Source of the DNA: Escherichia phage Rao1
Length of the DNA stretch: 44,051 nt
Strand: one strand, 5' to 3'
Sequence record: PQ221054
The position numbers and the translations under genes are program-made. Positions 14,012 through 14,640 of this stretch are shown here, in pieces. Numbering within the stretch: the stretch's first letter is position 1; every line of letters begins with the position of its first letter. A model generated the notes under the pieces. It was not told the origin of the DNA and searched no databases. It was given only the letters and a program-made list of their open reading frames with translations.

Positions 14012-14326
14012 ATGGCAAAATTCAAACTTTCACTTAAGGCGCTTCCTGACTTTAAACTTCCAGTTAAGTTTCAGCTTGCGAATGGAGAGGACGCAGAAGT
14101 AGTCTTAACAGTTAAGCACAAGAAATCATCTGAGTTACAGGAGATTCTTAATCGTGAAAACTTCAGCACTAAGGAATTGATTAGCGAAATCTGCTCTGAC
14201 TGGGATTTAGAAGAACCATTTAACGATGAGAACGTCGATGAGTTTGCAAACCTTTTCCCTGGTGCAGTTCCATCGCTAATGGATAGCTACATGAAAGCAC
14301 TTGCAGGGCAGCGAGTAAAAAACTAA
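14012..14326 (+). CDS. Tail assembly chaperone (lambda G-like)
   Basis: 104 aa directly upstream of the tape measure; ends at slippery heptamer A_AAA_AAC. Confidence 0.65.
   Translation: MAKFKLSLKALPDFKLPVKFQLANGEDAEVVLTVKHKKSSELQEILNRENFSTKELISEICSDWDLEEPFNDENVDEFANLFPGAVPSLMDSYMKALAGQRVKN
14317..14323 (+). other. Putative -1 programmed ribosomal frameshift site (A AAA AAC)
   Basis: X_XXY_YYZ heptamer in the zero frame just before the stop of 14012..14326; the -1 frame is open from 14287 to 14640. Confidence 0.6.
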
Positions 14327-14388
14327 AACGCGCAGTATACTTACAATACCAGTCACCGCCAACGGATGCCGAACTCGAAGCTATCGGA

Positions 14389-14640
14389 ATGAAACGTTCC
14401 GATTATGAAGGTGAGGAGCCTGAAGAGTTACACTTCGATGAAACAATGATGCAAAGCTGGGATGTGTACTGTGCTATGTCGACACAATGGCGAGTAGGTG
14501 CTTGCGGTGCCACAGGCCTTGATTATAATTGCCTTCCATTCTTGTTCAAAGTCTATAAAATAGATGATGAAGAAATGGTACTTAACGATATCAGAATACT
14601 TGAGGCTAAAGCCTTAGATATGATGAACGCCAAGAAATAG
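14389..14640 (+). CDS. Tail assembly chaperone extension (GT-like), probably expressed as a -1 frameshift fusion with 14012..14326
   Basis: ORF in the -1 frame with no RBS of its own; conserved G/GT arrangement upstream of the tape measure. Confidence 0.55.

Follow-up and report, generated by a model that had tools for sequence, protein, structure and literature searches.

The tail assembly chaperone gene of Escherichia phage Rao1 (sequence record PQ221054) very probably contains a programmed -1 ribosomal frameshift. Its open reading frame (ORF) reaches the heptamer A_AAA_AAC at positions 14317-14323 and ends directly after it at TAA, and a second ORF, which carries a DUF1799 domain, continues in the -1 frame. 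We analysed the whole 44,051-nucleotide (nt) stretch, hereafter the window. Over positions 12700-15200, it shares 99.8-99.9% identity with Escherichia phages TR2, TR3 and CY1_Cui-2023, the last of which is classified in Drexlerviridae, Braunvirinae, Christensenvirus (a T1-like siphophage); by this identity, the window is assigned to a T1-like coliphage of the same family, subfamily and genus. An initial annotation of the window had proposed a chaperone frameshift of the G/GT type at this position, an interpretation supported by the G/GT elements that we found present and conserved.

A slippery heptamer abuts the stop codon of the chaperone ORF

The elements of the proposed frameshift are as follows.

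14012..14326, + strand: tail assembly chaperone ORF (the 'G' analogue), 104 aa, zero frame; Pfam PF08748 Phage_TAC_4, E 1.3e-32; stop codon TAA at 14324-14326
14287..14322, + strand: open -1 frame 5' of the shift site, 12 codons, without a start codon, overlapping the end of G; variation follows the zero-frame phase
14317..14323, + strand: slippery heptamer A_AAA_AAC in the X_XXY_YYZ register of the zero frame; family-invariant core A_AAA at 14317-14320
14323..14640, + strand: 'T' part, -1 frame, 105 codons from CTA 14323-25 to AAA 14635-37, then TAG; DUF1799; phrog_17368
14389..14391, + strand: ATG annotated in GenBank as the start of an 83-aa 'TfmS'/DUF1799 protein; without a Shine-Dalgarno (SD) sequence; Braunvirinae only

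The 104-aa product matches PF08748 with 113 bits (gathering cut-off, 21.1), its residues 1-104 aligning with positions 1-124 of the 124-position model. The 3' end of the ORF reads CAG CGA GTA AAA AAC TAA, with GTA at 14315-17, AAA at 14318-20, AAC at 14321-23 and TAA at 14324-26, which confirms the placement and zero-frame register that the initial annotation had given for the heptamer. That annotation had also called the heptamer canonical; this holds for its register, but A_AAA_AAC is canonical as a shift site in eukaryotes only and works with low efficiency in E. coli (PMC4066793, PMC5009743).

Across the long ORFs of the window, X_XXY_YYZ heptamers occur in frame 33 times in 12,925 codons (0.26%), and about 0.03 would be expected in the 12-codon overlap. 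The other in-frame heptamer in G, T_TTC_CCT at 14254-60, was rejected as unproductive, a -1 frame stop following at 14284. A_AAA_AAC itself also occurs in frame at 13958-64, in a small upstream ORF (13728-13976), where the 9-mer GTAAAAAAC at 13956-13964 repeats the slip-site motif four codons 5' of the stop codon. A -1 shift at this copy, which is probably a product of chance, would merely swap ESK* for RIKVI*. Because it yields no plausible product, an in-frame A_AAA_AAC by itself proves little, and the weight of the evidence for the frameshift lies in comparison with relatives.

As had been claimed, the -1 frame is open from 14287, following a TAG at 14284-86, to the TAG at 14638-40. Its first 12 codons, 14287..14322, are not expected to be translated in that frame. 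Further on, residues 34-113 of the -1 frame translation align with positions 2-80 of the 80-position model of DUF1799 (Pfam PF08809; E 2.6e-14, 53.6 bits against a cut-off of 26). The 213-position profile phrog_17368 is matched on positions 1-107 by the G part and on 100-211 by the -1 part (E 2.6e-52); since it spans both parts, this profile represents a fused form, and such fusions are thus already in phage databases. In the window, the predicted fusion would join G codons 1-104 to the 105 codons of the -1 frame, giving 209 aa (...AGQRVKN-LKRAVYLQYQ...). The predicted junction peptide is AGQRVKNLKRAVY, with K in place of N if the Lys tRNA alone slips.

The site and the -1 coding frame are conserved among relatives

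We compared 88 loci, namely the window, 7 GenBank relatives and 80 IMG/VR contigs, which together comprise 62 distinct sequences. In 87 of the 88, the T homologue lies in the -1 frame and a slippery Lys site precedes the G stop by two codons. By the end of the G ORF, the loci divide as follows.

49 loci of 88: G[T/C]A AAA AAC TAA/TGA
33 loci of 88: GCA AAA GTT/GTC/GCC TAA
5 loci of 88: GCA AAG GTC TAA
1 locus of 88: contig L043 (IMGVR_UViG_2974632794_000001), with A5 instead of A6 and further indels

Without exception, the 62 distinct sequences have A as the third base of the Val/Ala codon, followed by AAR for Lys, while the entropy at the preceding third positions is 1.7-1.96 bits, i.e., nearly saturated. 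The family-wide invariant is A_AAR, two codons before the stop.

This conservation bears on two accounts in which ribosomes do not shift at all. In the first, a homopolymer sequencing error or a recent mutation would have split what is a single gene. The related contig L043, with its A5 and additional indels, is what speaks for this account, yet the -1 arrangement is identical in the 87 other, independently sequenced loci, and the zero-frame stop right after the site is itself conserved. Moreover, when the conceptual 209-aa fusion was used as a tblastn query against 50,697 phage records, 1134 records matched, 918 of them over at least 80% of the fusion, and in the sampled rows with both halves, the match always came in two pieces, which we take to reflect two reading frames (frames were checked directly in the 88 loci only). 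We therefore consider the probability of an artefact negligible. L043 was also considered as a natural in-frame variant and rejected, as, besides the A5 run, the reading frame of its T part is disrupted at least once more; these breaks are most likely homopolymer sequencing errors.

In the second account, RNA polymerase would slip on the A6 run, adding or dropping a base in some of the mRNAs. Efficient transcriptional slippage in E. coli needs about 8-9 or more A. The run here is just six, and the corresponding runs in relatives, A4 (GCAAAAG) or A3 (GCAAAGG), cannot support slippage, although the arrangement is kept. Thus, while the site is indeed a homopolymer run and such slippage is known in bacteria and insertion sequence (IS) elements (PMC5009743, PMC4066793), we hold this account to be highly improbable.

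The pattern of variation along the locus points to translation across the site. Upstream of it, mean entropy at zero-frame codon positions 1/2/3 is 0.68/0.39/1.59 bits; downstream, the corresponding values at -1-frame positions are 0.69/0.54/1.40 bits, and the codon phase of variation switches from the zero to the -1 frame exactly at the slip site. Within Braunvirinae, the 69 nt from 14323 to the ATG at 14389 differ between the window and Rtp-like phages at 12-15 nt, of which 9-11 fall at -1-frame third positions, with a single amino acid change. The conserved peptide encoded 5' of this ATG begins LKRAVYLQYQS[P/D/E]. Judged by these substitutions, selection acts at the protein level on the 22 codons that precede ATG 14389, beginning with the first codon past the site. 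The conserved peptide implies that the RNA between the G stop and the ATG is translated in the -1 frame and, as no start codon is found there, only ribosomes coming from G can read it.

ATG 14389 lacks a Shine-Dalgarno sequence

GenBank records of the closest phages all annotate two proteins, in which case the downstream ORF would be a separate 83-aa gene ('TfmS', 14389-14640); ribosomes would either initiate on it directly or re-initiate there after terminating at the G stop, which lies 63 nt upstream. Two further points favour this reading: the ATG persists throughout Braunvirinae, and the annotators of Escherichia phage vB_ecoS_OzMSK remarked that the frameshifted product 'also has independent RBS' (RBS, ribosome binding site).

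The signals around the ATG argue otherwise. It lies in the -1 frame, 22 codons past the junction codon CTA 14323-25, and the -1 frame of 14287-14388 holds no ATG, GTG or TTG. The 18 nt 5' of ATG 14389 form an anti-SD duplex of -0.2 kcal/mol, as opposed to -5 to -12 kcal/mol for neighbouring genes (G, -8.7; tape measure, -6.4), which we took as real from their Pfam and PHROG matches and tail-module synteny. Of the 902 plus-strand ATGs in the window, 79% score at least as well as this one for anti-SD pairing. The earlier statement that the downstream ORF has no RBS of its own is thereby borne out.

The same holds when the start is traced through the family. ATG 14389 is present solely in Braunvirinae; T1, Tempevirinae and Webervirus have Leu at that residue, and the first -1-frame start codon in Tunavirinae, Tempevirinae and Webervirus comes only 41-50 codons into the conserved domain. 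A start that is absent or late in the frame explains why several annotators missed the ORF or called only a fragment of it. Given a start without an SD, the 22 start-less codons conserved as -1 protein before it, and an ORF that several annotators could not call, we regard a separate gene as very unlikely. ATG 14389 is, on this sequence evidence, probably an internal Met of the fusion. The initial annotation had taken 14389..14640 as the part expressed only by fusion; the fusion itself is supported, but the selection on the preceding 22 codons moves the beginning of the T part to 14323. We infer that this T part is expressed only as a fusion.

Proposed mechanism and the slipping tRNA

In the mechanism that we propose, most ribosomes would read 14012-14323 and stop at TAA 14324, yielding the 104-aa chaperone. 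A small fraction would slip back one base on A_AAA_AAC at 14317-14323, with the Lys tRNA moving from one AAA codon to another and the Asn tRNA exchanging AAC for a near-cognate AAA, and would then continue from CTA 14323-25 in the -1 frame to TAG 14638-40. The product would be a 209-aa fusion, whose C-terminal 105 residues contain the DUF1799 domain. By analogy with lambda gpG/gpGT, the common N-terminal part may coat the tape measure protein and the -1-encoded part may recruit the major tail (tube) protein; how much there is of each form would be set by the low shift rate. While the anatomy of the site can be read directly, it is the slippage, its rate, the slipping tRNA or tRNAs and the roles of the protein parts that we infer.

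Alternatively, the Lys tRNA alone might slip on A_AAA at 14317-14320, as at a tetramer or 'NNA_AAR hexanucleotide' site, while GUA occupies the P site, in which case the junction would read RVK-K-LKR and not RVK-N-LKR. A_AAR is, after all, the sole family-invariant element, and in 38 of the 88 loci (L006, L017-L021, L050-L078, L088) the conserved site is not an X_XXY_YYZ heptamer, although the -1 arrangement and the junction length are the same. The sites of these relatives are of the tetramer or 'NNA_AAR' type, at which only the Lys tRNA is able to re-pair. Shifts by E. coli tRNA-Lys on A_AAG and NNA_AAG are well documented (PMC5009743, PMC4066793), and the GCA_AAG_GTC and GCA_AAA_GTT sites of relatives resemble known NNA_AAG hexanucleotide shifts (B. 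subtilis cdd, CGA_AAG; IS1222; PMC5009743), whereas the window has the full heptamer.

Set against this, the window's clade has no stimulator, and a heptamer is retained, abutting the zero-frame stop, in distant relatives with 30-37% identity (L092:694-703, L093:709-718, L094:756-765). The site reads A_AAA_AAC_TAA in Cronobacter phage phiES15 and G_GGA_AAC_TGA in Ralstonia phage Dina and Stenotrophomonas phage SBP4phi2. G_GGA_AAC requires AAC as the A-site codon, which points to an ancestral heptamer that was read with Asn in the A site. We thus consider slippage by the Lys tRNA alone unlikely in the window and prefer slippage on the full heptamer.

Comparison with known systems

The -1 frameshift of lambda gpG/gpGT was reportedly described by Levin, Hendrix & Casjens in 1993 and by Xu, Hendrix & Duda in 2004, 2013 and 2014, and the criteria that we used for a G/GT-type chaperone frameshift are said to be those of Xu et al. 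2004. In the window, we found the corresponding placement, a -1 overlap (in this class, occasionally +1) without a start or RBS of its own, a slippery site in register, and conservation. As for placement, the gene order is tail tube protein, Phage_TAC_4 chaperone, DUF1799 ORF (-1 frame), tape measure and lambda-M-like minor tail protein, so that the chaperone and the -1 ORF are flanked by the major tail protein and tape measure genes, as G/GT pairs are. For long-tailed phages, the G/GT frameshift is textbook knowledge (PMC5009743).

Like lambda, the window has a pair of overlapping ORFs downstream of the major tail gene and upstream of the tape measure gene; the second ORF is read in the -1 frame and lacks initiation signals of its own, the first carries a heptamer near its end, and the long form is predicted to be minor. 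They differ in the heptamer, G_GGA_AAG in lambda and A_AAA_AAC in the window, and in the zero-frame stop, which comes 5 codons later in lambda but directly after the heptamer in the window. The window's proteins also belong to Pfam PF08748 and PF08809 and have no detectable sequence similarity to lambda gpG or gpT.

A second parallel is offered by IS1 insA-insB', which likewise uses A_AAA_AAC in E. coli at low efficiency, with no established stimulator and with little fusion needed, although a transposase and a tail chaperone are unrelated in their biology. Its -1 frameshift was studied by Sekine & Ohtsubo and by Escoubas et al. 1991 (cited in PMC4066793). A third class, the -1 frameshift sites with a 3' stimulator (dnaX, IS3/IS911 type), has a stable, conserved hairpin or pseudoknot 5-9 nt downstream of the heptamer, which the window does not.

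The absence of a stimulator and other points against a frameshift

Several results weigh against a programmed frameshift at this site, or against its likeness to that of lambda. The first concern stimulation, for which the initial annotation had suggested looking for a downstream structure. Folding, RNAalifold, Rfam and a test of the helix found in T1 revealed none in the window's clade. The 60 nt 3' of the heptamer (14324-14383) fold with -5.1 kcal/mol (z +1.14), no better than shuffled sequences, and a longer fold of 14317-14420 gave z -0.52. RNAalifold yielded no consensus pairs across 38 relatives, and Rfam gave no relevant match, its two sub-threshold chance hits lying near the terminator only. 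A dnaX-like upstream SD pairing was at background level (-3.6 kcal/mol, equalled or beaten by 27% of windows in G), and the bases of the candidate SD-like element vary along with synonymous sites.

The remaining points concern the site and its products. A_AAA_AAC shifts poorly in E. coli (PMC4066793, PMC5009743). The literature that we searched held no junction peptide or reporter evidence for Rao1 or any Drexlerviridae. ATG 14389 is conserved within Braunvirinae, and a minor independent product from it is possible. The roles suggested for the two protein parts draw, by analogy, on synteny and Pfam family names. Lastly, hhalign comparison of the family alignments gave probabilities of 0.15% for lambda G and 0.79% for lambda T, i.e., no sequence similarity, and a sequence search for solved (PDB) relatives found none. 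The initial annotation's view that the locus reproduces the conserved G/GT frameshift thus stands for the architecture, but does not extend to sequence homology with lambda, for which both probabilities are below 1%.

How far a weak site counts against the frameshift depends on how much fusion is needed. In E. coli, A_AAA_AAC falls far short of A_AAA_AAG in efficiency (PMC4066793, PMC5009743), but unaided by stimulators it still shifts at >0.1%, and one IS cluster for which no stimulator is established uses it as a proven frameshift site (PMC4066793). Lambda requires about one gpGT per 30 gpG (PMC5009743), and since a low ratio of this kind is needed, a low shift rate would suit such a system.

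Some relatives do carry a downstream structure. In T1, Tempevirinae and allied phages, a hairpin, GGCGGUUU...AAACCGCC, starts 6-7 nt 3' of the heptamer, with a stability of -16 to -20.6 kcal/mol (z -1.9 to -3.9); it occurs in the same register in phage T1 (L007:922-952), L005, L022, L029 and L031. When this helix register was tested by alignment in the window, 4 of 8 pairs could form, non-contiguously, and the hairpin is absent from Braunvirinae. The stem in Webervirus is a different one of 9 bp, for which z is near 0.

For the window's clade, nothing but the heptamer and the stop codon that abuts it is left as a candidate helper. Heptamer and adjacent stop are kept together as far as the Ralstonia and Stenotrophomonas phages at ~30% identity, so the stop could be part of the signal. 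We tentatively raise the idea, while thinking it somewhat unlikely, that the frameshift in this clade runs without an RNA stimulator, the weak heptamer and its abutting stop acting as a 'shifty stop' that sets the G:GT ratio. If so, the T1-type relatives would have added a hairpin on top, and the family would form a natural series for the tuning of frameshift rate.

Prior annotation and significance

A feature of this kind is real, ordinary and already known for T1-like phages. Curated GenBank records carry a joined 'frameshift product' coding sequence at the same GTAAAAAACTAA site in vB_ecoS_OzMSK (PQ659294) and at the homologous site in Klebsiella phage Sparks (PQ358943). The OzMSK site, GTA AAA AAC TAA, is identical to that of the window, whereas Sparks and other Webervirus have GCA AAA GTT TAA, without a heptamer, and T1 and Tempevirinae have the downstream hairpin that is not in the window. 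These annotated Drexlerviridae homologues share 67% and 43% identity with the conceptual fusion. A frameshift has also been stated for Citrobacter phage Stevie (PMC4319613), and a G-T-type fusion was proposed for Rogue1 (PMC3496638).

The same-genus records TR2, TR3, CY1 and IMM-001, on the other hand, list two separate proteins, 'tail assembly chaperone' and 'TfmS', and an exact look-up of both fusion sequences (junction N or K) in a collection of 15 billion proteins found neither. The value of the present analysis for annotation is that the 209-aa fusion is missing from the genus records and that the 83-aa 'TfmS'/DUF1799 protein listed separately there is probably not a product in its own right. 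The analysis also suggests what DUF1799 does, in that it is likely to be the 'T' part of GT-type chaperones in T1-like siphophages and related ones. For the study of recoding, the relatives offer four versions of the site (A_AAA_AAC, A_AAA_GTY, A_AAG_GTC and G_GGA_AAC), with or without a hairpin, all abutting the stop.

Flanking genes and elements

The chaperone unit is surrounded by the following features.

12796..13455, + strand: major tail (tube) protein gene, analogue of lambda V; Pfam Phage_tail_3, E 7.7e-67; phrog_584 major tail protein
13509-13709: small ORF with a hydrophobic segment, 66 aa, from the ORF list; weak match to phrog_16572, a profile of function not known
13728-13976: small ORF with a hydrophobic segment, 82 aa, from the ORF list; phrog_22925, a profile of function not known
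13998..14003, + strand: SD sequence AAGGAG of the chaperone gene; anti-SD duplex -8.7 kcal/mol
14639..14668, + strand: putative terminator-like hairpin with an 8-bp stem, a UUCG loop and a T run; consensus match only
14678..17656, + strand: tape measure protein gene, analogue of lambda H; Pfam TMP_2, E 1.5e-50, and Tape_meas_lam_C, E 4.3e-17; phrog_24
17687-18037: lambda-M-like minor tail protein gene, downstream of the tape measure gene

The two small ORFs at 13509-13709 and 13728-13976 form an insertion that separates the chaperone gene from the major tail protein gene, at a spot (13509-13976) where relatives ES, AN_ECEAS and IMM-001 show an indel; they possibly represent a moron or a membrane protein.

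Terminator-like hairpins bracket the chaperone unit. The one at 14639-14668, AGCCATCC-TTCG-GGGTGGCT followed by TTTTTTATTAT, overlaps the stop codon of the -1 ORF and lies 20 nt 5' of the tape measure ATG. The other, at 13460-13487, just 3' of the major tail protein stop, consists of AACCCTC-TTCG-GAGGGTT and a T run. Both might attenuate transcription and thereby lower the dose of downstream tail genes.

Further along, a 180-aa ORF on the minus strand (18857-19399) breaks the row of tail genes between the L-like gene at 18065-18832 and the K-like gene at 19421-20209; a similar extra gene at the L-like/K-like position is described in the Rogue1 paper (PMC3496638).

Finally, some proteins in the same 90%-identity clusters as G and T of the window (P0003, P0018, P0008) are filed by NCBI under unlikely hosts, namely Nitratidesulfovibrio liaohensis and, for a partial protein, Staphylococcus aureus. 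Because these hosts are implausible for a coliphage, the entries probably reflect phage contamination of assemblies.

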